NCBI GenBank assembly: GCA_965208155.1
Contig: OZ242322.1
Location: forward strand, 1,153,732-1,217,731
Reading direction: 5' to 3'
Length of the DNA: 64,000 nt
Source: Thermodesulfobacteriota bacterium
GTDB lineage: Bacteria > Desulfobacterota_D > UBA1144 > Nemesobacterales > Nemesobacteraceae
Under the pieces are notes generated by a model, which was given only the letters and a program-made list of their open reading frames with translations, made no database searches and was not told where the DNA came from. The position numbers and the translations under genes were made by a program. This document shows positions 29,717 to 56,853 of the stretch, in pieces (the first letter of the stretch is position 1; every line of letters begins with the position of its first letter).

Positions 29717-29722
29717 GGCTCC

Positions 29723-34682: not shown

Positions 34683-35040
34683 TCTAGTAATAATGTATTA
34701 CAAAAAAGGGAATAAGGCAAGCGGAATCCGCCCGGGCGGCGAAGTTTCCGCCTGGCTTGCGGGATATGCATTGCGGGAAGTTCTCTTTCTTCGGAAAAAA
34801 AGGCGCGGGGCCCTTCCCGCGGCCCGCAAGCACAGAGGGGGTTTGGATTTTTCAGGCGAATTAACCGCGAGGATAACGGGCAATGTCTCCGGGAAAGCTT
34901 GCGCGTCCGCGAAGCAGGCGATGCTAAAGGAAAATGCTTGTGCTCCCGAGAGCAGATACATTAGATGTCTTGATAATTTTCCCTGTATGATATAATAAGT
35001 TGTATTAAAAATTACTTTTTATATATAATCATATATCAAA

Positions 35041-35355
35041 ATGAATTACACGACTGAACATATAGCCCGCGCGTTACGCAGCGCCCGCGAAGCCCGGGGT
35101 TTTAGCCAGCGCGAACTGGGCGCAAAGACGGGGGTGGCGCAGGGCTATATCTCAAGGATTGAGAACGGGGCTGTTGATCTCAGGGTTTCAAGCCTGGTTG
35201 CGCTTGCCCGGGCTCTTGGTCTGGAACTCACGCTTGTTCCGCGCGCGGTACTGCCCGCCGTGGAATCGATAACGCGCGCCCGCGCCGCCGCGCCGCCGCG
35301 CGGACAGGAGGGCTCGAGGCCGCTTTACGGTCTTGACGAGGAAGGTGATGACTGA
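35041..35355 (+). CDS. hipB: HipB-like HTH_XRE antitoxin
   Basis: RGFSQRELGAKTGVAQGYISRIENG. Overlaps hipA by 23 nt. AT-rich TATAAT-containing promoter upstream. Confidence 0.7.
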   Translation: MNYTTEHIARALRSAREARGFSQRELGAKTGVAQGYISRIENGAVDLRVSSLVALARALGLELTLVPRAVLPAVESITRARAAAPPRGQEGSRPLYGLDEEGDD

Positions 35356-36574
35356 CGTCCATGTTCTTGAAGTCCTGCTTCACGGCTCTTCCGTCGGTAC
35401 GCTGACGCGAGTCGGAGACGACCGCGCGTTATTCGCATTTAACCGCTCCTATATTGAGAATCCCGCAAGACCGGTGGTCAGTCTTGGTTTCAAGGACCGG
35501 TTCGGGGAACTGATTACGGCCTTCCCGCCCACGCAGACGCGGATTATGCCGTTTTTTTCAAACCTGCTTCCCGAAGGCCGTATGCGTGCCTATCTGGCGG
35601 GGCGCGCCGGAGTAAAATCCGTCCGGGAATTTTTTTTGCTCTGGGCGCTGGGCGAAGACTTGCCGGGAGCGCTTGCCGTCAGATCTTCAGGCGGTGAGCC
35701 GTGGCCGTCTGACTCTTCGGATGAAAGTTACGGCGGCGGGAGGAGCGAGAGCGCCCTTCGGTTCTCACTGGCGGGGATGCAGCTTAAGTTCTCAGCCGTT
35801 GAGGAGGCTCGCGGCGGTTTTACCCTTCCGGCAAAGGGGGTTGGCGGTTCATGGATAGTCAAGCTGCCTTCGCTTCATTTTGCGGGTGTTCCCGAGTGCG
35901 AGTTCTCGATGATGACGCTTGCCCGGCTGATCGGCATGGACGTGCCGGAGGTACGGCTTGTGGACATAGACGAGATCGGCAACCTTCCCCGGGATATCGG
36001 CGCTCTGAGCGGGCGGGCGCTCGCCGTAAAGCGCTTCGACCGGCGGGAGGACGGCGGCGCGGTTCACATTGAGGACTTCGCGCAGGTTTTCGGCGTCTAT
36101 CCCGAGGACAAGTACAGAAGGGCGAGAGCGCGCAACATCGCCGGGGTAATAGGGGCCGAGTGCGGGGAGGGGGACGCGGCCGAGTTTATCCGGCGCCTTA
36201 CGTTCAGCGTGCTTATCGGCAATGCCGACATGCATCTTAAGAACTGGTCGCTTGTTTATCCTCCTGGGCGAAACGCTGCTCTGGCTCCCGCCTATGACTT
36301 CGTTTCCACGGTTGCCTACATACCGTCAAGCGAAGCCGCTTTGAAGTTCAGCCGAACCAGGCGCTTTGAGCGTTACTCGGAGGATGAGCTTTCTCATCTT
36401 GCGGCCAAGGCCCTGCTTCCCGAAAAGCTTGTTCTGGACACGGCGCGCGAGACCGTGGAGCTGTTCCGTCAGCACTGGCGTGCCGAGAGAAGGAACCTCC
36501 TGTTGTCCGGCGACGCGATAAAAGCCATTGAGGATCATCTGAGGACTCTTCCCCTGGGAGCGCACCCTGGATGA
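35333..36574 (+). CDS. hipA: HipA family serine/threonine kinase toxin
   Basis: 413 aa; LSLAGMQLKFS, VKRFDRR, GNADMHLKNWSL. Confidence 0.85.
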   Translation: MTRKVMTDVHVLEVLLHGSSVGTLTRVGDDRALFAFNRSYIENPARPVVSLGFKDRFGELITAFPPTQTRIMPFFSNLLPEGRMRAYLAGRAGVKSVREFFLLWALGEDLPGALAVRSSGGEPWPSDSSDESYGGGRSESALRFSLAGMQLKFSAVEEARGGFTLPAKGVGGSWIVKLPSLHFAGVPECEFSMMTLARLIGMDVPEVRLVDIDEIGNLPRDIGALSGRALAVKRFDRREDGGAVHIEDFAQVFGVYPEDKYRRARARNIAGVIGAECGEGDAAEFIRRLTFSVLIGNADMHLKNWSLVYPPGRNAALAPAYDFVSTVAYIPSSEAALKFSRTRRFERYSEDELSHLAAKALLPEKLVLDTARETVELFRQHWRAERRNLLLSGDAIKAIEDHLRTLPLGAHPG

Positions 36575-36837
36575 CTGTTACTTCTTGTCCCTCCACTTGA
36601 TATAGCAGAACTTATTTTTAAGAGGGACAGAAGAGCAGTCGAGAGGAATTCGTCTTTACGGCACGGAATTTGCGCCGGGGGCAGGGGGGAACTTCAGCTT
36701 AACGAGTTCAAGTTTTTCCAAATCTTCAATAGACCATCAAATATCGTTAAGTAGTCTTTTGAAGAATTTGGCACTGTTGCAGGTTTTCTTTGGGTGGTAT
36801 GCGGGGTTTGCTCCCCACCCGCCTCTTCCCTGAACAA

Positions 36838-36915
36838 AGAAATTATGGCAGAGACATGTGAAGTTCAAAATGTCGTATCTGGGTTTCATTGCGGCGGGGG
36901 ATTATGCTCTTTCAG
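36838..36915. repeat. Degenerate copy (~80% identity) of the 3' terminal ~80 bp of the IS4-family IS found at 42826-42905
   Basis: ATTATGGCAGAGACATGTGAAGTTCAAAATGTCGTATCTGGGTTTCA... versus GTTATGGCAGGCAGTAGTGAAGTTCAAAATGGCGTATGCGGGTTTCA... Confidence 0.45.
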
Positions 36916-36920
36916 ACCGA

Positions 36921-37427
36921 TCAAGGGGGCAGCGACACTGCCAAGTCGCTGATCACGTCTGAGATGTATTCACGAAGCCACGGTTCTGGCTCGCGATGCG
37001 ACTTGAGAATGCTTGCTGATTCCCGATCGCCCCATGATTCTGCTGCCCCCACCGCGGCATCCCTGATTTCCACATTATCTGCAGTCAGTGCCCTGCGGAT
37101 GAGTTCAGCGCGCCATGAATATGTTCCAGGTTTCGTCTGACGTCCAAGGCAGCGCAGGACTGACGCGGCAAAGCCTGGATGTTCTTCGTCCAGAGAAAAA
37201 CTCTTAAGCCAGTCGAAAACTTGCCGGTTTTTCGAGGAACGCAGCGCCGTTGCGATAATCCGCTCCGCGGGATGACTCATTCCGCTTTCAAGCTGGCTGG
37301 CTTCAAATGCTGCGTGGAGCCTGTTTGAAAATTGTGTCTGTTCCGGTGACAAAATGTACCTGCCTCCCCGAGTTCCCTTACGGAACGATCTCCGGCTGTG
37401 TTTTGCCTGAAGAGTACAGGGCTTCAT
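36921..37427 (-). CDS. Hypothetical protein (119-168 aa, start ambiguous), overlapping the 3' end of abiEii
   Basis: Helical protein with no motif recognised. An internal ATG at 37280 would remove the overlap. Confidence 0.4.
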   Translation of the reverse strand: MKPCTLQAKHSRRSFRKGTRGGRYILSPEQTQFSNRLHAAFEASQLESGMSHPAERIIATALRSSKNRQVFDWLKSFSLDEEHPGFAASVLRCLGRQTKPGTYSWRAELIRRALTADNVEIRDAAVGAAESWGDRESASILKSHREPEPWLREYISDVISDLAVSLPP

Positions 37428-38301
37428 GAATCTCCGTTAACGTGCCCCTGATATGTGCGCTCAGGGAAGCGACGAATTCCGGTTTCCCCACTGTTTCCGA
37501 CAACGCCGTCTTATCAAGAAATCTCGACATTTCCTGCTGAAACAGCCGCTTTTCAAAATACTCGGGTATCGTATCGATTCTTTCTTCAAGAAGGGATTTA
37601 TAATGCTCGGTTATTCCGCGATCGGCAATTTTCAGTCTGATTAAATCAGACTTCACCACGGCGCCTTTCTGCCGCAGCCACAGCATGTCCCACAAGTCCC
37701 GGGCTTTTATGTTGCTCCGCGCGGGCACCGCGACCAGTTTGTCCGCCAGTATTTCGGAAAGAGAAGAGCACCTGAGGAACATTGTATTGTAGCCGTCGGG
37801 CAAATCCTGATAATTGGTCCTGATAATCTGGGGCGAGACTTCGTACGTGGGAAGGCATGTTATGTCTATGTTGATTCGCTGCTGAGGCAGATCTTTTCTG
37901 TCTCCTCCGGTCTTTATGATAACCTTCCAGGTGCTGACGCGGCTGTTTGCGAAACCGGAGTCTTCCTTCATCTCTTTTGGACTCCTTACCTCTGTTTCAA
38001 GTCCGTAACGGCCGTATATGTAATCCTTGAGTTCAGACCTGATCCTCTCAAATTCCTTCGCCCGAAAATTCACCCCCGCGTGAAAATCAATGTCTTCGCT
38101 GTATCGGTTTGATCCGTAGCACAGACGCAGGCACGTACCGCCCACAAAAGCCATGGGAGGGGGCATCAGGGCCTTGCGCTGCAGGACGTAAAAAATGTCG
38201 TAATGTATCAGTTCCTTTTCAATTACGGGGCGCAGTTGTGCGAGAGCCGGAGCGGCTCCGATAACCCTTCTGACTCTTTCAGTTAACGGGATTGCGGTCA
38301 C
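37378..38301 (-). CDS. AbiEii / AbiGii family nucleotidyltransferase toxin (DUF1814)
   Basis: FVGGTCLRLCYGSNRYSEDIDF NTase motif; 307 aa. Confidence 0.8.
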   Translation of the reverse strand: MTAIPLTERVRRVIGAAPALAQLRPVIEKELIHYDIFYVLQRKALMPPPMAFVGGTCLRLCYGSNRYSEDIDFHAGVNFRAKEFERIRSELKDYIYGRYGLETEVRSPKEMKEDSGFANSRVSTWKVIIKTGGDRKDLPQQRINIDITCLPTYEVSPQIIRTNYQDLPDGYNTMFLRCSSLSEILADKLVAVPARSNIKARDLWDMLWLRQKGAVVKSDLIRLKIADRGITEHYKSLLEERIDTIPEYFEKRLFQQEMSRFLDKTALSETVGKPEFVASLSAHIRGTLTEIHEALYSSGKTQPEIVP

Positions 38302-38944
38302 GGATCACCTCATTATAAGTTTCCATTGAAACCATGTGAATGTTGCGGCCCACTCGCCTCAGATCTTCAAAAGCCGTCTCGGGGTCGGCGATCCTGAGCG
38401 GTCTTGCGTTCTGCCAGCAGGTGTTGCGGATAATCTCGGATTCCCGCCGTGTGGTATGCGTAAACTCTATTGTTCCGTAGGGCGTGGTGTATTTCTGACT
38501 CCTTCCCGTCGTCATCACCGTGAGGTAGTTAAGCGTCATCTGGCTTATTGCGCCGTATTCCGAAAGGGCTGTCTCAAGACTTATGTAGGAGTATTTTCCC
38601 CCGCGAAGCGCAACCGCGACGGATTCAAGCCTGTAGGCGTTGGCGGAGTTCCGTGTATATAAATATACGCCCCGGCAGGCTCTTTCGATTACGCTGCCCG
38701 CCATGGCCCTTTTGAGCGTCTTTTTCAGGTTTTCTTCCGGTTCGCCCGGGAAAACATTCCTGATCATCCCGTTTGTGAAAGCGTGTATCCCATTTTCTGA
38801 CAGCAGATCCAGAAATTCGACTAGCGCGGACATTTTCATTGCTTTGTCTCCACAGAAAAGGTAACTAATTTTCCCCTTTCTGTAAACCTTTTTCGAAAAG
38901 CGGAAGGTCAATCGCGGATCAGCAACTTGCAAGGAATCCCGCAA
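38279..38944 (-). CDS. AbiEi family antitoxin / transcriptional regulator (probable start at the internal ATG 38836)
   Basis: Lies upstream of abiEii with a 23-nt overlap. C-terminal AbiEi_4-like region. Confidence 0.65.
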   Translation of the reverse strand: MRDSLQVADPRLTFRFSKKVYRKGKISYLFCGDKAMKMSALVEFLDLLSENGIHAFTNGMIRNVFPGEPEENLKKTLKRAMAGSVIERACRGVYLYTRNSANAYRLESVAVALRGGKYSYISLETALSEYGAISQMTLNYLTVMTTGRSQKYTTPYGTIEFTHTTRRESEIIRNTCWQNARPLRIADPETAFEDLRRVGRNIHMVSMETYNEVIRDRNPVN

Positions 38945-38963
38945 GCAGTTGATGGTCCAGGGG

Positions 38964-39054
38964 TCATATGCCGGAGGCTCTTGTTCCCTGTTCCGTCATT
39001 TGTTTTTTTCCGTGACTTCTTCTATCAGTGCCAGAAGATCATCTGAAACGCCGG
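38964..39054. repeat. Direct repeat copy A (~91 bp) covering the last ~19 codons plus the 3' flank of the 124-aa gene
   Basis: >90% identical to 44373-44464. Confidence 0.7.
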
Positions 39055-39370
39055 ATGGAAGCAGGTTTTTCCCGTGTTTTCGGCGCGCGGCGATCATAGC
39101 CGCGTAGTAAATCTCTCCTCCGGGATTTATGCTGACCGAGATTACCTTTTCAGGAGACCTGTACCACTCAAAGGAGATGGCTCCGTCAGGTTCCGCAGCT
39201 GTTTGCGGCATTTCGATATCTGGGGGGAGAAGTTCAAGAAAAGCTCTGGCGTCTCGCAGAACTTCTTCTGATACGGGTTCCGCTCTTGCGCCGTCCCAGT
39301 TCTCAGAAGAACATTCCTCAAAAACTTCCTGAAGTTCACGGAAAACTTCGTTGACAGTGATATCGGGCAT
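38996..39370 (-). CDS. Hypothetical acidic protein (124 aa)
   Basis: Complete ORF. Its 3' end is duplicated 5.4 kb away. Confidence 0.5.
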   Translation of the reverse strand: MPDITVNEVFRELQEVFEECSSENWDGARAEPVSEEVLRDARAFLELLPPDIEMPQTAAEPDGAISFEWYRSPEKVISVSINPGGEIYYAAMIAARRKHGKNLLPSGVSDDLLALIEEVTEKNK

Positions 39371-39707
39371 GCTCTTTGTGCTTCTCCGGGGTCATCCGTC
39401 GGGTCAACCGGGAAGAATTTTTTCCTTTCGACGGTTTTATTCATACATGATAACGTATTTTTGTTTTTCTGTCCGTTTCCTGGATTCTTCGTTGTATTAT
39501 TATCCATGGTTGTATGGCTCCTTGTTAAACAGGGTTGACCAGCTTTGCCACCAGACTGGAAAAAGCACCGGCCTTGGTCATCCTGTTAAAACATGAGAAT
39601 GAATTTGCAAGAAAAATCGAACAGGGATCTTATGGCCCGCAGATTAATGATGAAGACTGCCTGCTTGGTGCTTAATCCCGAAAAGTAGGTATTCTGGAAA
39701 CATATTC

Positions 39708-40589
39708 ATGAATGATTTATTGCTAAAAGGCCTTCAATTCGAAGTTGAAAACCTCGCCATTATCCGCAGAGGTAACTTCACCCAGAAACCGCTGACGGTT
39801 TTCTGTGGTCCGAACAACAGCGGTAAAACATTGGCCATGTACTCTCTTTACTATTTTTACAGCTTGTTGCCCGAGAGGGTCAGCAAGGGTAAAAACCTCG
39901 AGAGAGTCAGCCTTGAGAAATTTAACAAATACATGTCGTCCTCGCTTCCAGGGTTGTTCAATACCTCTTTAAAGGAACTGGACAAGGCGACATTCTGTCT
40001 TAAAGCCACGGAAAGTGACTGGCAAAGAATTGTCGGCGAAGCGAGGAGTTCGACTCGGATTTTCCTTGTGCCTGCGGAACGTAATGGTCTGCATCTGTTT
40101 TTTCGTGAACTTAGCACGCGGCGCACCGCCCTGCTGCACCATGCTTCCAGAGAAGACACAGATATCTCGGAATTGTTGCGCGACGTTATCCATTCGCACT
40201 ACGCTCTTCCAATAGCCGATTATATCAACTGGCTTAACGAGTTGCCCGAAAAACAGAAGTTGAAATCGAATGGTTTCCACGAGCATGCTTCGTTGCTTAA
40301 AAGGAAGCTGGTTGGTGGAACCTACAGGGTTGATGCTCGCAGCGGTGCTGTTCAGTTCAAGCCCTATCAGCCCAAGCGCGATGGAATAAAAACAAATTTC
40401 ATGGGCCTGCATATGACTTCCGGCATGGTTAAAAGCTTGTTCGGACTGTGGTTTTACCTGGAAAACCAGGCGTCAAAGGGCAGCGTACTTATGATCGATG
40501 AACCGGAGTTAAACATTCATCCCGCAGGCCAGCGCTACATAGCCCGGCTTCTGGCGAGGCTTGTGAATGCCGGGCTTAATATCGTCATC
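39708..40589 (+). pseudogene. AAA_15/AAA_21 ABC-type ATPase, N-terminal 294 codons, interrupted by an IS insertion
   Basis: FCGPNNSGKT Walker A; LMIDEPELNIHP Walker B. The reading frame runs into the IS left IR. It resumes exactly after the IS as ...STHSDYIVRELNSLIML (H-loop). Confidence 0.8.
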
Positions 40590-42948
40590 CTTTCAAGCCG
40601 ACACACTTGACTCCTTAATATTCGCTGGGTATATATACTGGCGTGCGGATAGGATTACGTCATTTTTCATCAGACAGCATAGAATGGTTAAAAGAAGCGG
40701 CGACAGATCCTGAACAGACTCGCTATGGGCTGGCACTGGGGCTTTGCGAGAAGGACAACTGGCGCAATGCCCGGGGGGAGTTGTGTCTTGCGTCCGCACG
40801 CAAGAGGCTTCCCACAATAGCGCAAGCCGTCGGAGTCAAGCTGCCCGCTCCTGCGTCCCTGCCCAAGGGCATGGTTCCTGGAGGCAAGGCTCCGCCGTTT
40901 GGAGCGGGCTATCCGGACAAGTATGTGGTTTGTTCTCTTGAGAGTCTGGGAGAAGTTTCTGTTGAGCCCGTGAAGGGGGCGGAGAAGAAGCTTTGGCGTG
41001 AGATGATACAGACTCATCATCCCGAGGGCTGGAGCAAGGTTCCCGGCAAACAGATATCCTACTGGATAACCACAGAGAATCATGGACGTGTGGGAGGCAT
41101 AGGTTTCTGTGCGGCAAGCTGGCACCAGGGTGCACGTGACAAATGGATAGGGTGGAGTGGGAGGGCGCGGGTGGAGAATCTTGGTCTGGTGATAAACAAC
41201 CATCGTTTTCTTCTGCTTCCGGGAGTCAGGGTAAAGAATCTGGCATCCCACGTGTTGTCGCTTGCCATATCGCAAGTGAGGGTGGAGTGGAAGGATATTC
41301 ACGGGACAGAACCCGTGGCGGCTTATACCTACATATCGAGTGATCATGAGGGGAGCAGTTACAGGGCCGCTGGGTGGGAGATGTGTGAGGAGAAGACTTC
41401 AGGGCGTCCTGCGAGCGGGGGGATTGTGGAGAGCAAGACGGTATGGATGAAACCCATATTGGGGGGATGGAAGAAGGTTTTGTGCGAAGAGCCCAGGCAC
41501 GTAATTGGACAGACACCAGAGCCTTATTACACAGAAGAGGCAGACTGGGCGGATGTGGAATACGGACGCAGTTCACATTCCGACGGACGGGTGAGGGAGC
41601 GTATAATATATATGGGGAGGAGGTGGGCCGATAATCCGGGGGAGCCGCTGCCAGTGGTTTTTCCTGGTGAAGCGGAGCAGAGGGGGATGTACAGGTTGCT
41701 GTCAAACAAGAGAGTTACGATGGAACATATACTTGAACCTCATACGGAAGCAACGGTGAGCCGGTGTCGTATGGAGAGAGTGGTTCTGGCTGTTCAGGAC
41801 ACCACTACGGTTAATTACAGTGGGCATGAGAAGACAGAGGGGCTTGTGAGCATAGGGGGGAAGGGCAAAGGGTTGTTTGTTCATGTGGGGTTGGCGATAA
41901 CGGAGGGGAAACGTCCTTTGGGGGTTTACGATCTTAACGCCACGGTGAGGGCAGTTGGGAAGGGTAAGAAGAACAAGAAGCAGGAGAGCAAGAGGTGGGT
42001 AGAAGGGCTTTTCAAGGCTCGGGAACTTAAAGAAGCGTGCGAAGGGACGCGTGTGGTTACGGTATGTGACAGGGAGGGGGACATGTGGGAACTTCTTCGA
42101 GAGGGGGTAGAGGGAGGGGACGGTCTTTTGGTGCGTTCAAAGAAGGGGCATAAGCGGCGTGTTGTGGTAGGGGAGGAGACAGAGAATCTGTGGAAGCACA
42201 TACAGAGCAGGCCGGTGCTTGCCAAAAGGGAGATAGAGGTGAAAGCATGCGGAGGGAAGAGGAAACGGGAGAGTCGGAGTGTGATGCTAGAGATACGTGC
42301 CGCGAGAGTGAAGCTTGTGGCTCCTTTAAGTGAGGGGGCTTCTGTGGAGCCGCTTGATATGCTTGCGGTAAGTGCTTCTGAGCCTGATCCGCCGAGCGGC
42401 AAGGAGCGTCTTCACTGGGTTTTGCTAACCACAGAGGGGGAAGAAACAGCGGAGGATGCGGTGCGTGCGATCAAGTGGTATGAGGCTCGGTGGAGTATAG
42501 AAGAGTATTTTAAAGCTCTTAAGACGGGAACGGGAATAAAGAAAAGGAGATTTGATTGCGCAGATGATCTGCGCAAGTGTCTTGGATTTGACGTTGTTAC
42601 GGCGTACAGGGTGTTTGATCTTGAGAGGATGGCGAGGGAGAAGCCGGACACTCCGGCCCGAGAGGTAGCGGGGGAGGAAGAGATAGATGCCATGTACAGT
42701 CTGCTCGAGTATGAAAGAATTATAAAGAAGAGGCCTGATGAAGCGCCCGACATACGCACTTACGTGATTGATCTTGCGAGATACGCTGGATTCAGGCCCA
42801 GCAAACGACAGCCGCTTCCGGGTACGAAGAAGTTATGGCAGGCAGTAGTGAAGTTCAAAATGGCGTATGCGGGTTTCAGGGCCGCGCGACAAATTCAAAC
42901 AAGGGGGCCCTGAAAAATAATGATGAGTCAAGTGTGTCGGCTTGAAAG
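40590..42948. mobile_element. IS4-family insertion sequence (2359 bp) with perfect 24-bp IRs and a 9-bp target-site duplication
   Basis: IR CTTTCAAGCCGACACACTTGACTC at 40590-40613, and its reverse complement at 42925-42948. TSD ATCGTCATC at 40581-40589 and 42949-42957. Confidence 0.9.
40643..42913 (+). CDS. IS4-family DDE transposase with N-terminal DUF4338-like domain (756 aa)
   Basis: C-terminal YEARWSIEEYFKALK (Y-2-R-3-E-6-K). N-terminal ISYWI..VGGIGFCAASWHQGARDKWIGWS region. Confidence 0.85.
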   Translation: MRIGLRHFSSDSIEWLKEAATDPEQTRYGLALGLCEKDNWRNARGELCLASARKRLPTIAQAVGVKLPAPASLPKGMVPGGKAPPFGAGYPDKYVVCSLESLGEVSVEPVKGAEKKLWREMIQTHHPEGWSKVPGKQISYWITTENHGRVGGIGFCAASWHQGARDKWIGWSGRARVENLGLVINNHRFLLLPGVRVKNLASHVLSLAISQVRVEWKDIHGTEPVAAYTYISSDHEGSSYRAAGWEMCEEKTSGRPASGGIVESKTVWMKPILGGWKKVLCEEPRHVIGQTPEPYYTEEADWADVEYGRSSHSDGRVRERIIYMGRRWADNPGEPLPVVFPGEAEQRGMYRLLSNKRVTMEHILEPHTEATVSRCRMERVVLAVQDTTTVNYSGHEKTEGLVSIGGKGKGLFVHVGLAITEGKRPLGVYDLNATVRAVGKGKKNKKQESKRWVEGLFKARELKEACEGTRVVTVCDREGDMWELLREGVEGGDGLLVRSKKGHKRRVVVGEETENLWKHIQSRPVLAKREIEVKACGGKRKRESRSVMLEIRAARVKLVAPLSEGASVEPLDMLAVSASEPDPPSGKERLHWVLLTTEGEETAEDAVRAIKWYEARWSIEEYFKALKTGTGIKKRRFDCADDLRKCLGFDVVTAYRVFDLERMAREKPDTPAREVAGEEEIDAMYSLLEYERIIKKRPDEAPDIRTYVIDLARYAGFRPSKRQPLPGTKKLWQAVVKFKMAYAGFRAARQIQTRGP

Positions 42949-43293
42949 ATCGTCATCAGTACGCACAGCGATTACATAGTGCGGGAACTCAATTCACTGA
43001 TCATGCTCAGCGGAGACAAAAACCAGAAGCTGCTCAGCAGGCATGGATATGACAAGAGTGAAGTTCTCAGCATTGAACAAGTGGGCGCTTATCTTTACGA
43101 TGAACAAACTATCACCCCTTTTGAAATAACTCCGGAAGATGGAATCTACGCGACGACTTTCGATGAGGTGATTGGCGATATAAATATGACTAACGACGAT
43201 ATTTATTACAGCCTGCAGGAACAAAGCGATGTCCGAAGAGGCGATACGAAGGAAATTTCTGCTTTTTCAATTCGGGAAAATTCCGTACAATAA
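42949..43293 (+). pseudogene. C-terminal 115 codons of the IS-interrupted AAA_15 ATPase
   Basis: In frame from the TSD: IVISTHSDYIVRELNSLIMLSGDK... Confidence 0.75.
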
Positions 43294-43308
43294 ACCGTAA
43301 GGATTTGG

Positions 43309-44073
43309 TTATACGGCAAGTTCTTCTCGTACCTTGTCTCGATTAGACCATAGGACTGCACGCAGGTCGTAGTTATGAAAAGCATCCAAAACGCTACCTG
43401 ATACACTTTCTTCGGAATCGTTTAGGATTGCATAGGCGCGTGATTCCTGAGGTCTTGCTTCCTTGGTATCGATCCACGAAAAAACCAAGGCTTTTGCGGT
43501 ATCTCTACTAGGGCGATTGATCGCCCGCAGAATACGTTCCGGCTGAGTCTTTGACTTCGGTATAATAAAATCAAAAAGGTGATCGTAACCGCTTCTGCCT
43601 GTAAATTTCACTTTGGGCGAGTAGCGGATTTCAGACATGTCCAGCCAGTTGATAACATCCTCGTAAAAAAAGCTTTCCACTATCGGAGATGCCATATAGA
43701 AAAGGTCGTTAACCGAAAGCATGGCCTGTAGAAGATTATGTTTCTGTAGAGCAAAATTATCTGTAGATGCGTTGACTTCAAGCGCTTTTAGATTTCTCCT
43801 AGCCCCGAAACCGTCAAGCGTCATTTTGAGCAGGGCTTGGCGCTTCGGGGTGTCTATTTTGCAACCCGACAGTTCAAGGTCTTCCAGAATATAGCCGTCA
43901 TCTGAGAGAACTAATTCCCCATTTCGACGTTTTACATAAATCTGCAGATAATCATTGTGACGATCCAAAAATGGCGTGGTTATTTCAACATAGTTGTCGG
44001 TTTCGCGAAGCGTCGTTTTGTTCCGTAGCCATTTCCAGTATTCGTCCAGCAGTGTTTGAACGCTCGGCATCAT
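43309..44073 (-). CDS. DUF1828/DUF1829-like protein (254 aa), convergent with the ATPase
   Basis: N-terminal LLDEYWKWL...[18 protein letters not shown] pattern typical of DUF1828. The assignment is tentative. Confidence 0.45.
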
Positions 44074-44372
44074 GAAAACAACCCTTTTTAAATTATAGTC
44101 GGTTTAACGATGTTACAAAACTCCATAAACTCCTTAAGTACTTGGTGAAGGTCGTTTAAATCTTCGTGCTTTTTTTCAAATCAGCCTCGGAAGGCGAGTC
44201 CGAAGAGGCTGATTTGAAACCGTTTCCTTGCCCTGATGCCACCTTCCTTCCGCCCTCCTTCTCTTGACCGTCTTTTCTCCTCTTAGTGCTACAACGCCAC
44301 CTTCGCCTTGAACTCTGGTGAATACGCCTTTGAGGCATTTGCGTAGTGGAGTATAGCTATACTGGGCAGGGA

Positions 44373-44464
44373 TCATATGCCGGAAGTCCCTTGTTCCCTG
44401 CTCCGTCATTTGTTTTTTTCCGTGACTTCCTCTATCAGTGCCAGAAGATCATTTGAAACGCCGG
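44373..44464. repeat. Direct repeat copy B (~92 bp): orphan duplicate of the 3' end of the 124-aa gene
   Basis: Encodes the same C-terminal ...DLLALIEEVTEKNK* but has no upstream gene body. Confidence 0.7.
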
Positions 44465-44601
44465 GTCTTTCGGGAAAATGTGAACCGCTCCCTCTGCCTG
44501 GAGCAATTAAAAGAGATTTTTTCTCTTTTAAATTGATTTTTAAGGGTTTTTATGTATATTAGCAGTATGTAATGAGTTGATATCGTATAAGGAGATGTCA
44601 A

Positions 44602-45924
44602 ATGATTATAAGTTTTTCAATAGAGAACTGGATGTCTTTCCGTGACCCCGTTTCTTTCTCAATGGTTGCAAGCCGTGAAAGACAGCATGGAAACCGGATC
44701 CCCAAGGTCGGAAAATACCAGATGAGGATTTTGCCTGTAGCGGCGATCTACGGCGCCAACGCGTCGGGCAAAACGAATTTCTTCAAAGCTCTGGGTTTTG
44801 TCAGGAATCTGGTTCTTGAAGGAACAGGTACTGACAAGCCGATTCCCGTGGAGCCCTATCGACTCGCCAACGGGTATACGGAAAGACCTTCCCGATTCAG
44901 TATAGAGCTGCTGATTGACGAAACAATCTACGAATTCAGCTTTGCCGCGACCAGAAGGGCCATTGTCGAGGAGAAGCTCGTAGAGATTACCAGCACAAGC
45001 GAGAAAACCCTGTATAACCGCCAGGCGGGCGAACCGAATCTTCACAGTTCACTAGGCGGGAAACCGTTTCTCCTTTTTGCTTTTCAGGGCACGGGGGACA
45101 ATCAGCTGTTCCTTACGAACTCCGTATCCCAGAAGGTTGACGACTTCAGGCCGGTTTATGACTGGTTCAGAAATTCCTTATCGTTGATTGCTCCGGATTC
45201 TATATATCAAAGATTCGGATACCTGCTTGATGAAACCCATCCGATGCGCAGCGCGGTTAACAGAACAATCCCGCAGCTTGATACAGGCATCTCTTATCTG
45301 AGCTTGGAAGAAGTGCCTTTTGAAAGCATTCCTTTCGAAGAAGAATTTAAAAACGATCTGTACGGAAAAATCGAAGAAGGCGGATACAGGGACGCTCGCC
45401 ACGGCACTGAACGTTTTGTCCTTGCAAAAAGGGGTGGTGAGGTGGTGGCGAAAAAGCTGGTCGCGTTTCACCCCAGAGCTGACGGAACAGATGCTAAGTT
45501 TGAATTCCATCAGGAATCAGAAGGTTCCCGGAGGGTAATTGATCTGCTGCCCGCCTTTCTGGGCGAGCCGCCTTTCGGCTCAAACAGTGTATATGTTATT
45601 GACGAGATGGACCGAAGCTTGCACCCGTTGCTGACGAGGAAGCTGATTGAAGTCTATCTCGACGGTGGCAGTGCGCAGAGCCGCGCGCAGCTGGTATTCA
45701 CAACGCACGATGTTTCCCTCATGGATCAAGACCTTTTCCGCCGTGACGAAATGTGGGTTACCGAGAAAAACTCCGAGGGGAATTCAGATATTTTTTCCTT
45801 CAGCGACTACAAGGGTATCCGCTATGACAAGGATATCCGTAAAAGCTATCTTCAGGGCCGTTTAGGTGGTGTTCCCCGGTTCTCTTTAGGCGGCACCGAG
45901 ATTAACCGCGAGGACAACAAGTAA
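44602..45924 (+). CDS. AAA_21-type ABC ATPase (440 aa), stand-alone
   Basis: IYGANASGKTN Walker A; YVIDEMDRSLHP Walker B; C-terminal FTTHD H-loop. GGAG RBS. Confidence 0.8.
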   Translation: MIISFSIENWMSFRDPVSFSMVASRERQHGNRIPKVGKYQMRILPVAAIYGANASGKTNFFKALGFVRNLVLEGTGTDKPIPVEPYRLANGYTERPSRFSIELLIDETIYEFSFAATRRAIVEEKLVEITSTSEKTLYNRQAGEPNLHSSLGGKPFLLFAFQGTGDNQLFLTNSVSQKVDDFRPVYDWFRNSLSLIAPDSIYQRFGYLLDETHPMRSAVNRTIPQLDTGISYLSLEEVPFESIPFEEEFKNDLYGKIEEGGYRDARHGTERFVLAKRGGEVVAKKLVAFHPRADGTDAKFEFHQESEGSRRVIDLLPAFLGEPPFGSNSVYVIDEMDRSLHPLLTRKLIEVYLDGGSAQSRAQLVFTTHDVSLMDQDLFRRDEMWVTEKNSEGNSDIFSFSDYKGIRYDKDIRKSYLQGRLGGVPRFSLGGTEINREDNK

Positions 45925-45999
45925 TGCCTCCGGGAAAACGGAGAAGATTCATCTAAATCACGCAAGGCTACGTGCCCGACATTGCATCCTCGGATTTTG

Positions 46000-46857
46000 T
46001 CAAGACATGCTTATCGTTTTTTTAGCTTCTACTGTCCAAGTGCGGATACTAGACAAAATTTCTTCAGGCAAACCGATGCAGTTTTCTACCAAGCGGCATC
46101 GGTCCAAAACTATTCCGGCATCAGTGTTAGTATTTTTCCAATCGGAATTGTCAAGTGCTTCCGAGATGCAAAATACTCTTGTCGGGTTGACAAGAAATGG
46201 TTCAAGCATCCATTTACGGATAAATCCCTCTGGTTGTAACTGGGAAGTAGATTTCTTCCAATTTGTTCCTGTTTTACATTGACCGAACAAAAGCAGTTGG
46301 CCCGGCCGCCGGTCTGCAAACGGAATCCATGCTACAACGTCAAGCAAGCCGTCTTTTTTCCTGACGGGTCTTTCGTCTCTGTTTCGAAACCCTGAACCTT
46401 CACCTAGCATATTGCAAAGTTCGTTAATTTTATTTTTGAAGTTTCCTTGTCTGGCTGTTCCAAAAACAAAACATTGCGCTTTATCCTGACCGAGATAAGT
46501 CTTCAATGCATGAGCAGATAGATATTCCAGCAACTTCGTACCGTCAATCTCCGCATGCTTTCTCTGCTTTTTCATATTGAGGCGGGTGCTTAGCAGCAAG
46601 TACAAGTAAACAACCGATTGTGTTTTTTCGGGTTCTGGGACATGGCCCCGCAACGCTGTCCCCTGTTGGTTGAGAGCAAACGGGTAAACGGAAGCGCATG
46701 CTCTTTCTCTACGATCGATTTCATTCATCACTTCATTAATCCGCTCGGCGTTTTCATCCTCATCATCGTTACAACCCTCATTGCTCTCGTTTTCGCCAAT
46801 ACGTCCCAAGTATGCAACGATCTCCCTAGCGGAGGTGTTTCCTTTAATCCAGCACAA
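46000..46857 (-). CDS. Hypothetical protein (285 aa), possible PD-(D/E)xK-like nuclease; last gene of the MTase / ParB-like operon
   Basis: GLLDVVAW...PGQLLLFGQCKTG resembles a D...(E/Q)xK core. Acidic N-terminus. The assignment is tentative. Confidence 0.45.
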   Translation of the reverse strand: MCWIKGNTSAREIVAYLGRIGENESNEGCNDDEDENAERINEVMNEIDRRERACASVYPFALNQQGTALRGHVPEPEKTQSVVYLYLLLSTRLNMKKQRKHAEIDGTKLLEYLSAHALKTYLGQDKAQCFVFGTARQGNFKNKINELCNMLGEGSGFRNRDERPVRKKDGLLDVVAWIPFADRRPGQLLLFGQCKTGTNWKKSTSQLQPEGFIRKWMLEPFLVNPTRVFCISEALDNSDWKNTNTDAGIVLDRCRLVENCIGLPEEILSSIRTWTVEAKKTISMS

Positions 46858-46929
46858 GAGCTCTGCGAAGTCTGCCAGTTCCAGAATGTCCGCATCTGGA
46901 GACGGTAGGTGGGGAAGCTTGAACAGGAT

Positions 46930-48051
46930 TTATTCCTCCGCAGCACGAGCCCTATTTTTTCTGGAGATTTTCCCCATGCGATTTCTTTTGCGAAGCATTT
47001 CTGAGTACACATCCTCAGCCATTTCGGCAACTGTTTCCGCTATGTGTAGAAGGTCTTCCGACCCATCATAGCCCGTCGTCATGTAGGCACGCGTATTTTG
47101 GAGTCCGCGTTTTGACTTTAGGAGTGCTTCTTCGAAGACATCGGTTGGAAGACGGCTTAATTCAAAAGCCACTGCTAATTCTTTGTCGTCTCGAAGTGCA
47201 GCAAGTGCCTCTCTACTTTTCAAGACTTCATTAAGCTGTCTAAGATGGGGATTCTGAGTCTCTACAACGGGCGGCTTGTTCTCTTTTTTATCTCCGTACA
47301 GCCAGATGCACAATTCGCCAAGTCTGCTTATGGCCTTTTTGGGTACTGGTGTTTTGGCTTCGGCATCCACCGACTTCAAGGATAGAAATTTACTGACTCC
47401 GTCGTAGTCGAGACCCGTGTAGAGGTGAGAGAAGGCAAATCTCTTACGAAACCGGTTGTCCCGATCGTAGACTCCCTGCCTTTCTGCTTGTTCTATGACC
47501 ATCAGCCCACGGTAAAGACGTTGCACTGTTTTGTGGCGGTCACCAATCTGTTCCGCAATGTCTTCAAGGGATATTTGGTATTTTCTGTGGATATTGGCAA
47601 TGTACTCGGCCTTTGCGTAACTACTCCACTTGGCGGGTCCGTTTACATGTTTAAAGCCTATATAGCGCCAGAGTTCTTCACGAGTGGAAATTTTTACCGG
47701 CAGATTCTCAAGCTTCTTGAGTTTTGCTCTCTTGAGGGTTGGAACATCCCAACCTTTTTCTGCAGCGAGGTTAGGATCAAGGAGTGCTTTTACGGCCGCA
47801 AGCCGCCGGTTTCCTTCAATGACTATTTTTTTGCTGCCTTCTTCAGCAACGATTAAGGGTTCATGTTCGAAATACCCGCTGGCAGCGATGGATTGTACCA
47901 ATTCCTTGATATCCATTGCGTCCCAAAGGATCGAGATAATATCATCTTCCTTTGCTGTTCCGGTGATTCCGTATTCCGCAAGCCGGGGATTCTCCCTGTC
48001 AAAGTGCAGCGAAGAAGTGGGCAGCCAGTTAGTATCTTCTGTTTTCGTCAT
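46930..48051 (-). CDS. ParB/Sulfiredoxin-domain protein (ParB-like nuclease/NTPase N-terminal domain), 373 aa
   Basis: KIVIEGNRRLAAVKAL is the ParB-box GxxR motif. Long helical C-terminus. Confidence 0.7.
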   Translation of the reverse strand: MTKTEDTNWLPTSSLHFDRENPRLAEYGITGTAKEDDIISILWDAMDIKELVQSIAASGYFEHEPLIVAEEGSKKIVIEGNRRLAAVKALLDPNLAAEKGWDVPTLKRAKLKKLENLPVKISTREELWRYIGFKHVNGPAKWSSYAKAEYIANIHRKYQISLEDIAEQIGDRHKTVQRLYRGLMVIEQAERQGVYDRDNRFRKRFAFSHLYTGLDYDGVSKFLSLKSVDAEAKTPVPKKAISRLGELCIWLYGDKKENKPPVVETQNPHLRQLNEVLKSREALAALRDDKELAVAFELSRLPTDVFEEALLKSKRGLQNTRAYMTTGYDGSEDLLHIAETVAEMAEDVYSEMLRKRNRMGKISRKNRARAAEE

Positions 48052-48064
48052 CAGTTTTTCTCCG

Positions 48065-48958
48065 CTAAGCGATTTTCAGCAAAGTGTTTTCGTTTTGCCC
48101 CATGCTATATGACTGTGGAATATGGACGTTATCGGGCGCGATTATCAGTTCCCGCGCGAAATGCTTTACCTGTAAAGTATAACGGAGCGGCAGCAGGGCC
48201 ATCTTGCATTTACCGTAAAGCCCACGAACCAGATCGCTGTCGTCGTAGGACATGATCCAAGGCAATTTTTTCTGAGTGTGCATGTACTTCGCCAATACGT
48301 GATGGTCTTCCGGTTCATACGCGTTGAGGTAAAGTCTCCGGCCGTTGCTTACGTAGGGCGGATCCAAGTATACGAACACGTGTCCCCTTCTGTGTCCCTT
48401 TGGCAGGTGGAGCCTGAGGAAATCAACGGCATCTTCGTTAAACACTTCTATGCGCTCGCGGTGTTTGGCGAGCGCGAGCAAGCGTTTCGCAAGACCCTCG
48501 CGATTAAAACGAGCATCCATTTTCCATCTGCCTTCTTGCCCGAAGCCTCCGATCGGCCCGGCGCCCATCAATATCCCCGACCTGTTGGTGCGATTCATGT
48601 AGAAGGCCGCAAAACCCAGATCAAAGAGATTGTGCCGCCCGGGGCTGGCGCAGATTTCTCTCTGGTTTCTCCACTCCTTGATCGTTAACGGCACTTTGAT
48701 TACGCGTTGCGCGAAACGTTCGGGCTGCTCAAGGGCTGCGCGCCAGAACGCGTAAATGCAGGGGTCCGCGTCGTTTAATCGAATCTTTGAAACAACCCCG
48801 GCACCCAGCAGCGCCAGCGCCGCGCCCGCTCCTCCTGCGTAAGGTTCGAAATAGACGCATCCCCTCAAGTCGTTTAGATCAATAACGTCGGCCAGAAACC
48901 CGGAAAGCGCCGTTTTCCCGCCGGGATATCGCAACGGACTGAGATGTTTTTCAGACAT
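48065..48958 (-). CDS. Dam-family N6-adenine DNA methyltransferase (D12 class); start at the internal ATG (MSEKHLSPL...)
   Basis: LRYPGGK (motif I) and DPPYV (motif IV). The ORF-track start at 49051 would overlap traW. Confidence 0.85.
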   Translation of the reverse strand: MSEKHLSPLRYPGGKTALSGFLADVIDLNDLRGCVYFEPYAGGAGAALALLGAGVVSKIRLNDADPCIYAFWRAALEQPERFAQRVIKVPLTIKEWRNQREICASPGRHNLFDLGFAAFYMNRTNRSGILMGAGPIGGFGQEGRWKMDARFNREGLAKRLLALAKHRERIEVFNEDAVDFLRLHLPKGHRRGHVFVYLDPPYVSNGRRLYLNAYEPEDHHVLAKYMHTQKKLPWIMSYDDSDLVRGLYGKCKMALLPLRYTLQVKHFARELIIAPDNVHIPQSYSMGQNENTLLKIA

Positions 48959-49037
48959 ATCCTTCCTTTTCCCTAGTACTGAAGTATGCACTCTGACACT
49001 TGCCTGGTCAATTTTAAGGAACAAAATCGCCTCTATA

Positions 49038-49655
49038 CTATTGCAGGACAATCTCCCGCAGCCTGAGCTTTTTTCCCTCCTGAGTCACAAGCGACGGCAC
49101 TTTTTCAATCTTGAGCCTCCTGAGCATAAAAGGACTTGCCTTGTATACTGGTTGACCCGCAAGCAAGGAAGCTCTTCGGATATCACCGTCTGTGAGCAGC
49201 AGAATCGGGTTTTCACTTCTTTTATCTGCCTCCTCAAGCGCCCTTTTCACCTGGTCCTCCCTCAGCACCAGAATGCTTTTCGAAAGCGCCATGTGGTCAA
49301 GCGGATTCACGGCACCAGCGGGAAAAATCATCGCTCCGGTATGGTCGCGCAGCGGATTCCGCACATTCACCGAAGGGTCGACGTAACGTACCCGCTCAGA
49401 AGTGGCTGATGGGACGTCAAGAGAAACAAAAAAGTGCTGCGCCCAGGATTCCCGGACTTTTTTCTCCATGCTCCCCCGAAGCGCCGCCATTGAGATATCC
49501 CCCGCCTTTCTCCGCACGTAGGAAAGCATGTCCTCTTCCTCTATCTCGTAGAGGCGCCCGTGAACCCCGAGATCTTTCCCCGAGGCCGGCACCGAGTGGG
49601 ACTGGACAAAAAAGACCGAGGCTAGAACAATGGAAATCCACGCCCGACTATCCAT
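49038..49655 (-). CDS. traW: F-type pilus assembly protein TraW
   Basis: Signal peptide, KDLGVHGRLYEIEEEDM N-terminal motif; ~205 aa. Lies between trbI/peptidase and (in F) traU. Confidence 0.8.
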   Translation of the reverse strand: MDSRAWISIVLASVFFVQSHSVPASGKDLGVHGRLYEIEEEDMLSYVRRKAGDISMAALRGSMEKKVRESWAQHFFVSLDVPSATSERVRYVDPSVNVRNPLRDHTGAMIFPAGAVNPLDHMALSKSILVLREDQVKRALEEADKRSENPILLLTDGDIRRASLLAGQPVYKASPFMLRRLKIEKVPSLVTQEGKKLRLREIVLQ

Positions 49656-56386: not shown

Positions 56387-56436
56387 ATGTCTTTTTTCAT
56401 GTCACATCACCTGAGGCCGCTCCGCCTGTCTTTCCC

Positions 56437-56793: not shown

Positions 56794-56853
56794 ACGCTTA
56801 TCTCCTTTATTTTTTGATTTAGTCAGGACACGTACCGCCCGTTTGAGTTTAAA

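Follow-up and report, generated by a model that had tools for sequence, protein, structure and literature searches.

Evidence for a long-lived cargo and defence-gene hotspot between traW and traU of a chromosomal F-type conjugation gene cluster in Candidatus Dadabacteria

SXT/R391-family integrative and conjugative elements (ICEs) carry variable DNA in five intergenic hotspots with fixed boundaries, mosaic content and remnants of earlier insertions at the boundaries; the variable DNA of R391 includes a HipA/HipB-like pair, and the word traW is absent from the text of the article describing these hotspots (PMC2791158). Defence-enriched loci inside ICE-like elements are also established (PMC9519451), one compact defence system being the two-gene PD-lambda-5, which resembles restriction-modification (RM) plus abortive infection (Abi) (Vassallo et al. 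2022, PMC9519451), and two further reports deal with core-genome defence hotspots of Pseudomonas aeruginosa and PAPI/PAGI-type islands (PMC10250203, PMC12629846). The locus described here lies in a window of 64,000 nucleotides (the whole stretch of DNA that was analysed; contig OZ242322.1, positions 1,153,732 to 1,217,731) from a Thermodesulfobacteriota bacterium, and consists of an F-like cluster of conjugation (tra) genes in which traW and traU are 14,355 bp apart (34683-49037); in plasmid F the two genes overlap by 4 bp. To our knowledge, traW/traU is not among the five SXT/R391 hotspots. The comparisons presented below support the view that this junction is a long-lived cargo and defence hotspot, not the site of a one-off insertion, and the traW/traU break in this chromosomal MPF_F cluster has very probably long served as a permissive landing and recombination site of the kind known from SXT/R391.

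A scan for TraU, using one genome per species, returned 31 loci, 26 of them from metagenome-assembled genomes (MAGs) assigned to Candidatus Dadabacteria (a class of Thermodesulfobacteriota) or Thermodesulfobacteriota, and 24 were analysed for the gap between traW and traU. In the 26 Dadabacteria-class loci, many of them on chromosome-scale records of 1.5-2.4 Mb, TraU was 73-92% identical to that of the window at the amino-acid level, and tblastn mapping found traE-to-traW and traU-to-traG contiguous. The gap was filled in 24 of 24 loci, with sizes of 1,052 bp (locus L001), 2.7-8.4 kb, and more than 10 kb (eight loci), and its GC content was below that of the tra genes in each of them. In outgroups from Rhodocyclales and Gallionella (TraU approximately 40% identical), traW and traU lay 40-169 bp apart. 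A preliminary description of this DNA, made from the sequence alone, had proposed alignment to related elements as a check on its insertion: the pair is adjacent in F and in the outgroups, but never contiguous in the 24 Dadabacteria-class relatives. The same description had treated unrelated genes of equal GC at this position in homologous elements as evidence against its proposal; the relatives do carry unrelated genes there, by which a one-off insertion is refuted, but this cargo is of lower GC, as fits a hotspot.

Gap contents differed among all 24 loci, which drew on a shared pool of modules in varying order (hipA in 10 loci, the small gene o124 in 7, AbiLi in 5, PD-T4-4_A in 3, ParB-like plus nuclease genes in 2, and AbiEi in 1), and the modules of the window were shared piecemeal, in other orders, with L002, L003, L005, L018 and others. 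A census of 149 open reading frames (ORFs) in the relatives' gaps gave Calx-beta (12), HipA (10), AAA_21/AAA_15 ATPases (10), RTX (6), C5 methyltransferase (MTase; 5), Mrr (3), Vsr (3), GHKL ATPase (3), RloB (2) and DDE transposase (2); no integrase was among the 25 most frequent Pfam families of this cargo. The junction therefore has conserved flanks, fixed boundaries and differing content, rich in toxin-antitoxin and defence genes by PADLOC and Pfam matches and by the census. The idea of a cargo or defence hotspot inside the transfer operon, put forward in the preliminary description, is upheld by the differing low-GC DNA with base-precise edges found there in 24 of 24 relatives.

Genes of the window were called with Pfam and NCBIfam profile scans, and defence genes with PADLOC profiles. 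The tra genes form two minus-strand blocks (26714-34682 and 49038-59672) in F-like order:

26714-29716, minus strand: traG (TraG_N; Pfam/NCBIfam 5e-73)
29723-31123, minus strand: traH (6e-63)
31120-31956, minus strand: traF (5e-50)
31911-33104, minus strand: traN (1e-27)
33052-33882, minus strand: trbC (2e-16)
33693-34682, minus strand: traU (Pfam TraU 3.3e-97), leading the downstream block traU-trbC-traN-traF-traH-traG (26714-34682)
49038-49655, minus strand: traW (TIGR02743 3.6e-27, full-length alignment)
49622-50116, minus strand: S26 signal-peptidase-like gene (Pfam/NCBIfam)
50109-50489, minus strand: trbI (Pfam/NCBIfam)
50459-52978, minus strand: traC (Pfam/NCBIfam)
between traC and traA, minus strand: traV, traB, traK and traE (Pfam/NCBIfam)
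56027-56386, minus strand: traA pilin gene (Pfam/NCBIfam)
56854-58323, minus strand: HD-domain protein gene (489 amino acids (aa); Pfam/NCBIfam)
58323-59672, minus strand: type IV coupling protein (T4CP) gene (TraG-D_C, T4SS-DNA_transf, SXT_TraD 9e-48)

Both the F-like order and the separation of a gene pair that adjoins in F had been recognised in the preliminary description, and the profile scans agree on both counts. The traW product scored 95 bits against TIGR02743, under the 175-bit cutoff, and its identity is based on the full-length alignment together with synteny. Gene calls in close relatives included TraL. With traW, traU, trbC, traN, traF, traH, other tra genes and a pilin gene, the cluster has the gene complement of an MPF_F (F-type) type IV secretion system (T4SS). 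The T4CP, at 449 aa, was considered as a possible truncation and rejected as such, as homologues across Desulfobacterota have 440-450 aa. An overlapping ORF on the plus strand (orf166, 34495-34995) was likewise dismissed as a gene, its conservation being limited to the part antisense to traU. The traN gene of the window (31911-33104) encodes 397 aa, whereas the genes of relatives encode approximately 720 aa (721 aa in L038); both the N-terminal and the C-terminal part can be aligned, and a central stretch of approximately 300 aa is gone, in frame, so that this mating-pair stabilisation adhesin is shortened and the function of the system may be altered here.

The edges of the variable DNA could be placed to the base. 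On the left, conservation in a 17-sequence alignment of the junction ends at the traW stop codon (49038-49040). On the right, homology to relatives ends at 34721, 39 bp upstream of the traU ATG, and two features adjoin this point:

34690-34721, minus strand: conserved motif of the right boundary, CTTGCCTT-N8-TTTTGTAaTACATTAT, near-invariant in 20 aligned sequences
34722-34967, no strand: window-specific spacer (246 bp) with no homology to any locus

The motif, also written CTTGCCTT-N8-TTTTGTAtTACATTAT, reads TTGCCT, 17 nt, TACATT; its end lies 9 nt ahead of the ATG, the window has a single copy of it and shuffled sequence has none, and its exact core is present once in each of 15 loci. The deeper clades L019-L021 retain TTGCCT/TTGTAT, 17 nt, TACAAT/TACTTT (in L019, TTGCCT, 17 nt, TACAAT). 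Outgroups with adjacent traW and traU are without the motif and have a Shine-Dalgarno sequence in its place; no Shine-Dalgarno sequence was found upstream of traU in the Dadabacteria loci. From this pattern we infer that the motif is a dedicated promoter of traU-traG, giving a near-leaderless mRNA. A scan of the window for sigma-70 promoters and terminators gave counts no higher than in shuffled sequence. Within the spacer, the terminator scan marked a terminator-like hairpin (34804-34821, minus strand), and a 37-nt scar at 34860-34896 repeats the AbiLi gene's 3' end, being 86% identical to 45901-45937 (direct repeat D3).

Base composition also sets the gap apart. Its GC content was 50.4%, as against 62.9% for traG-traU and 60.0% for traW-T4CP, so the estimate by eye of 45-50% versus approximately 65% in the preliminary description had the direction right and slightly overstated the difference. 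GC at third codon positions (GC3) was 0.56 for the cargo, 0.73 for the tra genes and 0.67-0.74 for host housekeeping genes. The GC content of the whole window is lower than that of the tra backbone, and the possibility that the backbone is the compositional outlier was rejected, since tra GC3 equals housekeeping GC3 and it is the cargo that deviates. Of the two discontinuities expected in a windowed GC profile, the one at approximately 36.6 kb was sharp (0.608 to 0.518), but the change at 49.0 kb was only gradual, the GC content of traW, trbI and the S26 peptidase gene being itself 54-58%. The hipBA genes at the traU end of the gap, with 60-63% GC, group with the tra backbone.

The carrier of this hotspot is chromosomal. 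The window also holds groEL, aminotransferase and glycosyltransferase (GT) genes, and the tra cluster adjoins groESL and a GT1-aminotransferase-GT2 group; since the window has chromosomal genes and relatives lie on chromosome-scale records of 1.5-2.4 Mb, it is not a conjugative plasmid. A megablast search of positions 26700-34700 against 72,556 plasmids gave no match, and a look-up of the exact TraU sequence found nothing on record. The same chromosomal locus was occupied in the window and in L008, L036, L038 and L039, with host proteins 76-94% identical to those of the window. The layouts and amino-acid identities to the window were as follows:

L038 (the genome of L021), layout: GT1...aminotransferase-GT2, with traG 90 bp on
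L039, layout: mutS-groES-groEL...GT1-aminotransferase-GT2, 6.3 kb of other defence-like genes, traG
L008, layout: traG remnant-DUF4143-TnpB-GT2-aminotransferase
L036, layout: flanks as in the window, traA to traG deleted
L008, identity: GT2 93%, aminotransferase 94%, TraU 90%, TraC 92%
L036, identity: GT2 92%, aminotransferase 88%, T4CP 92%
L016, identity: GT2 85%, aminotransferase 92%, TraU 86%
L019, identity: GT2 78%, aminotransferase 83%, TraU 82%, TraC 79%
L021, identity: GT2 76%, aminotransferase 81%, TraU 73%, TraC 76%

Identities of tra and host proteins followed the same rank order across five genomes; a fixed locus and host-like divergence were thus found there instead of the horizontal mobility of an ICE. 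No integrase was found in the 64-kb window, outside which the ends of the element lie, and ARAGORN detected no tRNA or tmRNA gene in it, leaving no obvious tRNA attachment site. Pfam and NCBIfam scans gave no match to a relaxase family among the window proteins. A tyrosine recombinase gene lies approximately 7 kb beyond the T4CP gene in L036, at a position whose equivalent is outside the window, and a plasmid of Desulfosarcina has a member of the T4CP family. The simplest reading of these comparisons is that the cluster is a long-resident, largely vertically inherited island; the T4CP family on the Desulfosarcina plasmid and the tyrosine recombinase near the L036 T4CP suggest that it was probably derived from an ICE. 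MOBH relaxases carry HD domains, and the HD-domain protein of the window (56854-58323), which is conserved and always adjoins the T4CP (L036, L037, L042), may be an unrecognised relaxase, as a candidate only.

That the carrier is instead an active ICE inserting site-specifically by GT2, with host co-divergence being coincidental or due to host-restricted transfer, is unlikely. A complete MPF_F gene set and T4CP with intact ORFs would fit it, as would the plasmid-borne T4CP family, the L036 recombinase, and the divergent traW copies and 97-99% identical segment described below, which show movement of DNA between lineages. It is opposed by the recurrence of one GT1-aminotransferase-GT2-(variable)-traG locus across genomes with 76-94% host protein identity, by tra identity ranking as host identity in all five comparisons, by the mere 90 bp between GT2 and traG in L038, and by the agreement of tra GC3 (0.73) with that of housekeeping genes (0.67-0.74); integrase, tRNA gene and recognisable relaxase were not found in the window, and no near-identical copy turned up in different hosts. 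The preliminary description had named an ICE or a conjugative plasmid as the carrier, which the chromosomal locus and the same three missing features do not bear out.

The tra cluster is intact in many lineages and decaying in some. In L008 (11648-13478), traN is joined at residue ~212 to residue ~763 of traG, with traF and traH lost; in L036 (11350-12753), a deletion begins inside a gene of 118 aa (window 56437-56793) that lies downstream of the HD gene and extends through traG, and the HD gene is internally deleted. A second variable site lies between host GT2 and traG (window 21300-26700; L039:11857-17737; L018:19038-20550). Its content in the window is two DUF4143/AAA_14 ATPase genes, a gene for a 622-aa MULE-like transposase and one further ORF; elsewhere it holds an AAA_15 ATPase, an N6_N4 MTase and SocA_Panacea (L039) or AbiE (L018), or is empty (L038, 90-bp gap). 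Between the host GT1 and aminotransferase genes of the window lies a TnpB / IS605 OrfB gene (16030-17226) with a Cas12f-like TNB domain, of which a 73% identical copy stands at another position in L008 (15018-16184). Upstream of groEL, an ORF (6022-7416) with approximately 30% similarity to the PD-T4-4_A ATPase comes after a DDE_Tnp_1 transposase gene (4321-5976) and is another possible defence gene beside an insertion sequence (IS).

Many relatives carry another class of genes in the gap. In 17 of 24 relatives, the end of the hotspot nearest traU encodes a small secreted protein, c0 (135-192 aa), often followed by c1 (11 loci), a large protein with Calx-beta repeats that reaches 1,919 aa, both being co-directional with traU; RTX calcium-binding proteins are present in 6 loci (examples of c0, c1 and RTX genes: L001:9217-9624, L003:7439-9906, L017:3688-9848, L007:7369-8715). 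These c0, Calx-beta and RTX proteins could be adhesins or T4SS-associated substrates. The place of c0 and c1 upstream of traU, where co-transcription is possible, and the recurrence of RTX proteins would suit an explanation in which the gap genes are lineage-specific accessory parts of the secretion system and not cargo. This is nonetheless highly improbable for the window, in which tblastn found no c0, c1 or RTX gene: the genes in its gap belong by their matches to families of toxin-antitoxin, defence or IS genes, lie mostly on the opposite strand or in convergent blocks, and have a GC3 far under that of the tra genes, and gap content varies between genomes.

From the traU side to traW, the gap of the window contains the following features:

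35041-35355, plus strand: hipB (Pfam HTH_3 2.8e-15)
35333-36574, plus strand: hipA (HipA_C 1.4e-45, Couple_hipA 1.7e-21)
36821-36930, plus strand: scar, 3' fragment of an IS4-family transposase gene, 78% identical to 42811-42886
36921-37427, minus strand: small ORF (168 aa; weak HEAT_2 match, 1.9e-5, below the Pfam cutoff)
37378-38301, minus strand: AbiEii (PADLOC 6.3e-92)
38279-38944, minus strand: AbiEi (PADLOC 1.3e-62; NCBIfam TAA_AbiEi, 201 bits against a 150-bit cutoff)
38996-39370, minus strand: o124, small acidic protein, recurring in 7 relatives' hotspots (cluster 3)
39696-40589, plus strand: PD-T4-4_A-like ATPase gene, 5' part (tblastn, residues 8-309 of the intact 405-aa L005 protein)
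40590-42948, plus strand: IS4-family insertion sequence, 2,359 bp, with inverted repeats and target duplication
40643-42913, plus strand: IS4 transposase gene (756 aa; NCBIfam transpos_IS4_3, 298 bits against a 160-bit cutoff)
42949-43293, plus strand: PD-T4-4_A-like ATPase gene, 3' part (tblastn, residues 307-405 at 42949-43245)
43309-44073, minus strand: DUF1828/DUF1829 protein gene (PADLOC PDC-M24B 2.1e-103; DUF1829 1e-32; DUF1828 1.3e-27)
44170-44283, no strand: non-coding scar matching an RTX-module flank in L007, L010 and L012 (blastn)
44385-44464, no strand: non-coding scar, 94% copy of the o124 3' end (direct repeat D1)
44602-45924, plus strand: AbiLi-like ABC/OLD-type ATPase gene (440 aa; PADLOC AbiLi 3.1e-82; AAA_21 3.5e-37)
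46000-46926, minus strand: cassette gene 3, predicted PD-(D/E)xK (D...QxK) nuclease (~308 aa; invariant motif)
46930-48051, minus strand: cassette gene 2, ParB_N-like protein (373 aa; PD-Lambda-5_A 1e-23; PDC-M38A 7.7e-23; TIGR00180 3e-6)
48065-48958, minus strand: D12-class (Dam-like) N6-adenine MTase gene (PADLOC PD-Lambda-5_B 3.8e-100, MTase_II 1.6e-77; MethyltransfD12 2.1e-14)

The hipBA pair is divergent from traU, its genes overlap by 23 bp, and the antitoxin gene comes first, as in HipBA systems. The hipA copies in ten of the relatives' gaps have 77-79% nucleotide identity, comparable to the backbone; judged by this divergence, hipBA is an old resident that has changed at about the backbone rate. 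In the adjoining transposase scar the matched part spans 36821-36896 and the alignment runs to a shared CAAGGGGGC (~36930), where it stops; the scar is without the terminal inverted repeat of the intact IS (40590-42948). The IS 3' end remnant noted here earlier was therefore correctly perceived, its similarity being to the 3' end of the intact IS transposase gene, and so was the AbiEi/AbiEii pair, with its PADLOC matches and NCBIfam score above cutoff. This pair (type IV toxin-antitoxin / abortive infection) is apparently intact; the AbiE module also occurs downstream of traG in L018 (84% nucleotide identity) and, as a partial copy, next to traU in L002 (90%). The HEAT-like small ORF has homologues in the gaps of L008 and L018, and o124 had no confident family match in Pfam, NCBIfam or PADLOC.

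The IS4-family element has a DDE transposase, 33-bp terminal inverted repeats (arms 40590-40622 and 42916-42948, 91% complementary; I1) and a 9-bp target duplication, ATCGTCATC, read directly at 40581-40589 and 42949-42957. It sits within the PD-T4-4_A-like gene, the halves of which appear as ORFs 39708-40610 and 42979-43293 and overlap by three codons, the length of the 9-bp duplication. Both parts are uninterrupted in L005, L009 and L018, and the intact homologue matches PADLOC PD-T4-4_A at 3.9e-98. Three ABC-ATPase loci had been counted in the preliminary description; there are really two genes, one of which, PD-T4-4_A-like, was cut into two ORFs by the IS. With the A gene broken and the B gene not found, PD-T4-4 is incomplete here, and the 174-178-aa gene that follows PD-T4-4_A in L005 and L018 is absent from the window by tblastn. 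The IS4 transposase itself has an N-terminal extension of approximately 300 aa that matches the Druantia DruA domain (PF14236, 1.7e-22); IS4 transposases of plasmids align to it by tblastn from residue 252-302 onward only, and its gene has an unusually strong GC skew (+0.35 to +0.41).

Partners were also missing for two further candidates. No PDC-M24A partner of the PDC-M24B candidate defence gene was identified in the window, and no AbiLii/RloB partner of AbiLi was found there by tblastn, so that AbiLi is present without the RloB-like half of an AbiL system; an RloB gene adjoins AbiLi in L003 and L015. Hence about half of the gap's defence systems are incomplete (PD-T4-4_A split, AbiLi without partner, PDC-M24 with the B gene only), while hipBA, AbiE and the MTase cassette look intact from their predicted genes. 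No Rfam family reached gathering thresholds between 26 and 60 kb.

Next to traW lies the co-directional three-gene cassette of MTase, ParB-like and nuclease-like genes, which the preliminary description had already taken for an operon. The MTase gene is, as had been stated, the first gene after traW, with one revision: its start is most likely ATG 48958, which has its own Shine-Dalgarno sequence and a promoter-like site (48983-49011), and with this start there is no overlap with traW. The match of the ParB-like protein to PD-Lambda-5_A covers its N-terminal ~160 residues only, of 473 profile positions. The third gene probably starts at CTG 46926, two codons past the ParB-like stop, because the reading frame matches the N-terminal consensus of the family right after that stop codon; a GGAGGA Shine-Dalgarno sequence stands ahead of the CTG (46924-46932 region) in a frame shared with the ParB-like gene, and L035 and L005 share the arrangement. 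With the start of the listed ORF (TTG at 46857), 23 conserved residues of the N-terminus are missed. More than 1,200 homologues of the nuclease-like protein are spread over several phyla; a Pfam domain is present in none of them, and an Asp...Asp...Gln-Cys-Lys motif is invariant; the protein of the window had no PADLOC or Pfam match, and PDB sequence searches with the nuclease-like, ParB-like and HD proteins gave no useful match. The three-gene cassette also occurs in contigs of Zixibacteria and Gammaproteobacteria, one copy being nested in a type I RM locus.

Traces of exchange and rearrangement are visible in the window and its relatives. A metagenome contig, L035 (from a metagenome scan with TraW that returned four loci, none close), has the same traW-MTase-ParB-like-nuclease order as the window, and its DNA identity to the window is 73-78% over traW and MTase and 97-99% over the ParB-like and nuclease genes (46080-48050), a jump that indicates recent exchange with a diverged element. 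In L008, two full-length traW copies (3186-3806 and 6663-7283; 81% identical in nucleotides, 75% in amino acids) bracket part of the cargo, and in L012 a 153-bp traW 3' fragment (6877-7029) lies inside the gap, followed by L007-type cargo; such duplicates would be the expected outcome of recombination between diverged elements with traW as an arm. Scars of earlier arrangements comprise fragments of the transposase gene, o124, the AbiLi gene and the RTX-module flank, and the intact IS is cleanly nested in the PD-T4-4_A-like gene. A repeat search of the window found no repeats flanking the 14.4-kb block as a unit, or its modules. Together these features point to turnover by recombination and accretion, and not to a dedicated cassette mechanism.

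They also leave little room for a genomic island or composite transposon of 14.4 kb inserted recently and in a single event. The gap forms one unbroken block of lower GC with IS-related sequence near one GC transition, and its exact content was found in no related locus, but no direct or inverted repeats bracket the block, DNA is already present at the junction in all 24 relatives, the modules are found separately and in other orders in other genomes, their ages are mixed (backbone-like hipBA against ParB-like and nuclease genes 97-99% identical to a distant element), and the one intact IS sits within a cargo gene instead of at the block edge. Such an origin is very improbable indeed, and the one 14.4-kb insertion of the preliminary description gives way to a mosaic in which at least eight modules differ in age and are shared piecemeal, with a nested IS and scars. 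Scarcely credible, finally, is an assembly chimera joining tra halves to unrelated DNA: the source is probably a MAG and repeats such as the IS are present, but the traW-MTase-ParB-like-nuclease junction recurs on the independent contig L035, the split layout recurs in many independently assembled chromosome-scale records, and the IS has a proper target duplication.

The long-serving landing and recombination site could have arisen by the following course of events. Ancestral coupling of traW and traU would have been lost in the Dadabacteria-class lineage, with traU-traG acquiring its own promoter set against the traU start codon; with such a promoter, the transfer genes would suffer no polar effects when the DNA upstream changes. 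Build-up of the 14.36 kb would then have been stepwise, by illegitimate insertions and deletions, by one recent IS4-family transposition into the PD-T4-4_A gene, by relocation of modules between variable sites, and by exchange with related elements through homology, the arms being conserved tra genes or shared cargo. As for function, hipBA and AbiE would act as addiction modules stabilising the region, and the MTase/ParB-like/nuclease cassette, AbiE and the remains of PD-T4-4, AbiL and PDC-M24 would serve in defence against phages and mobile DNA.

Several points weigh against this account. The motif matches 8 of 12 promoter consensus positions and fell below the threshold of the sigma-70 scan, having been found by alignment instead; it could be a regulator-binding or translation-initiation element. 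The terminator-like hairpin approximately 120 bp upstream of traU is unique to the window and hence uninformative on the family. Defence activity is read from matches to hidden Markov models (HMMs), and about half of the systems are incomplete. Most shared modules are 75-90% identical to the relatives' copies, similar to the backbone, and gain probably accounts for no more than does differential loss from larger, older gaps; unambiguous recent exchange is seen in one segment only, and the relatives represent one genome per species, so that turnover within a population was not observed.

A bolder and more doubtful proposal is that, in a clade of uncultured Dadabacteria-class bacteria, an F-type T4SS was anciently acquired, vertically inherited and selectively maintained, its operon rewired by a dedicated and perhaps leaderless traU promoter to give an insulated slot through which lineages swap defence systems; the slot of most relatives also holds adhesin-like secreted proteins of the Calx-beta or RTX kind. 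If so, this would be a domesticated conjugation machine with a built-in site for accessory-gene cassettes, which could mediate DNA exchange in the population or contact with a host. The fixed locus and host-like divergence in any case raise the question of whether an F-type T4SS is vertically retained over the long term in small-genome uncultured bacteria. An F-type T4SS resident in the chromosome has a precedent in the gonococcal genetic island. Among the papers searched in full text, none described a T4SS or conjugative element of Dadabacteria.

Accessory genes, for defence and for surface proteins alike, can be mined in these genomes between two anchors, the stop codon of traW and the CTTGCCTT...TACATTAT motif, and the MTase/ParB-like/D...QxK nuclease cassette is a widespread candidate restriction-like system whose third gene is without a Pfam domain. 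The locus further indicates that the translational coupling of tra genes in F can be undone; it seems to be an apparently new promoter that makes the site permissive.

Compared with plasmid F, the window keeps the order traA-L-E-K-B-V-C-trbI-traW-traU-trbC-traN-traF-traH-traG, but F has the traW/traU overlap and no S26 peptidase gene, whereas the window has a short T4CP (~450 aa), a split operon and no relaxase family match. The cassette resembles PD-lambda-5 in that its MTase corresponds to the B protein (3.8e-100) and the next gene to the N-terminal part of A; it differs in having three genes, with a separate nuclease-like protein of ~308 aa, and in a ParB-like protein that covers the N-terminal third of A (profiles of ~430-530 positions). 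Like the core-genome defence hotspots of P. aeruginosa, the junction has conserved markers bracketing RM, Abi, toxin-antitoxin, ATPase-nuclease and IS content, some of it degraded; here, by contrast, the markers are conjugation-operon genes that are translationally coupled in other elements, and many relatives also carry secreted Calx-beta and RTX proteins.

The closest parallel is with SXT/R391. Both have a syntenic conjugation scaffold broken at a fixed intergenic site with nucleotide-precise edges, a mosaic shared piecemeal, boundary remnants, and cargo with toxin-antitoxin (HipA/HipB-like) and restriction or defence genes (PMC2791158). In the window, traC/trbI and traW likewise have an S26 (TrhF-like) peptidase gene between them, and the T4CP best matches the SXT_TraD subfamily, at 163 bits, however, against a 366-bit cutoff (TIGR03743). 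Int_SXT, the prfC site, setR/setCD and bet/exo were not found in the window, so the cluster lacks the marks of the SXT/R391 family; it occupies a fixed locus and co-diverges with its host, whereas SXT/R391 elements circulate among genera. What is new relative to SXT/R391 is apparently the junction (traW/traU), the lineage and the seemingly fixed, vertically inherited carrier, by which the principle of a conserved conjugation scaffold with fixed hotspots would extend to another junction and to a distant uncultured class, Candidatus Dadabacteria.

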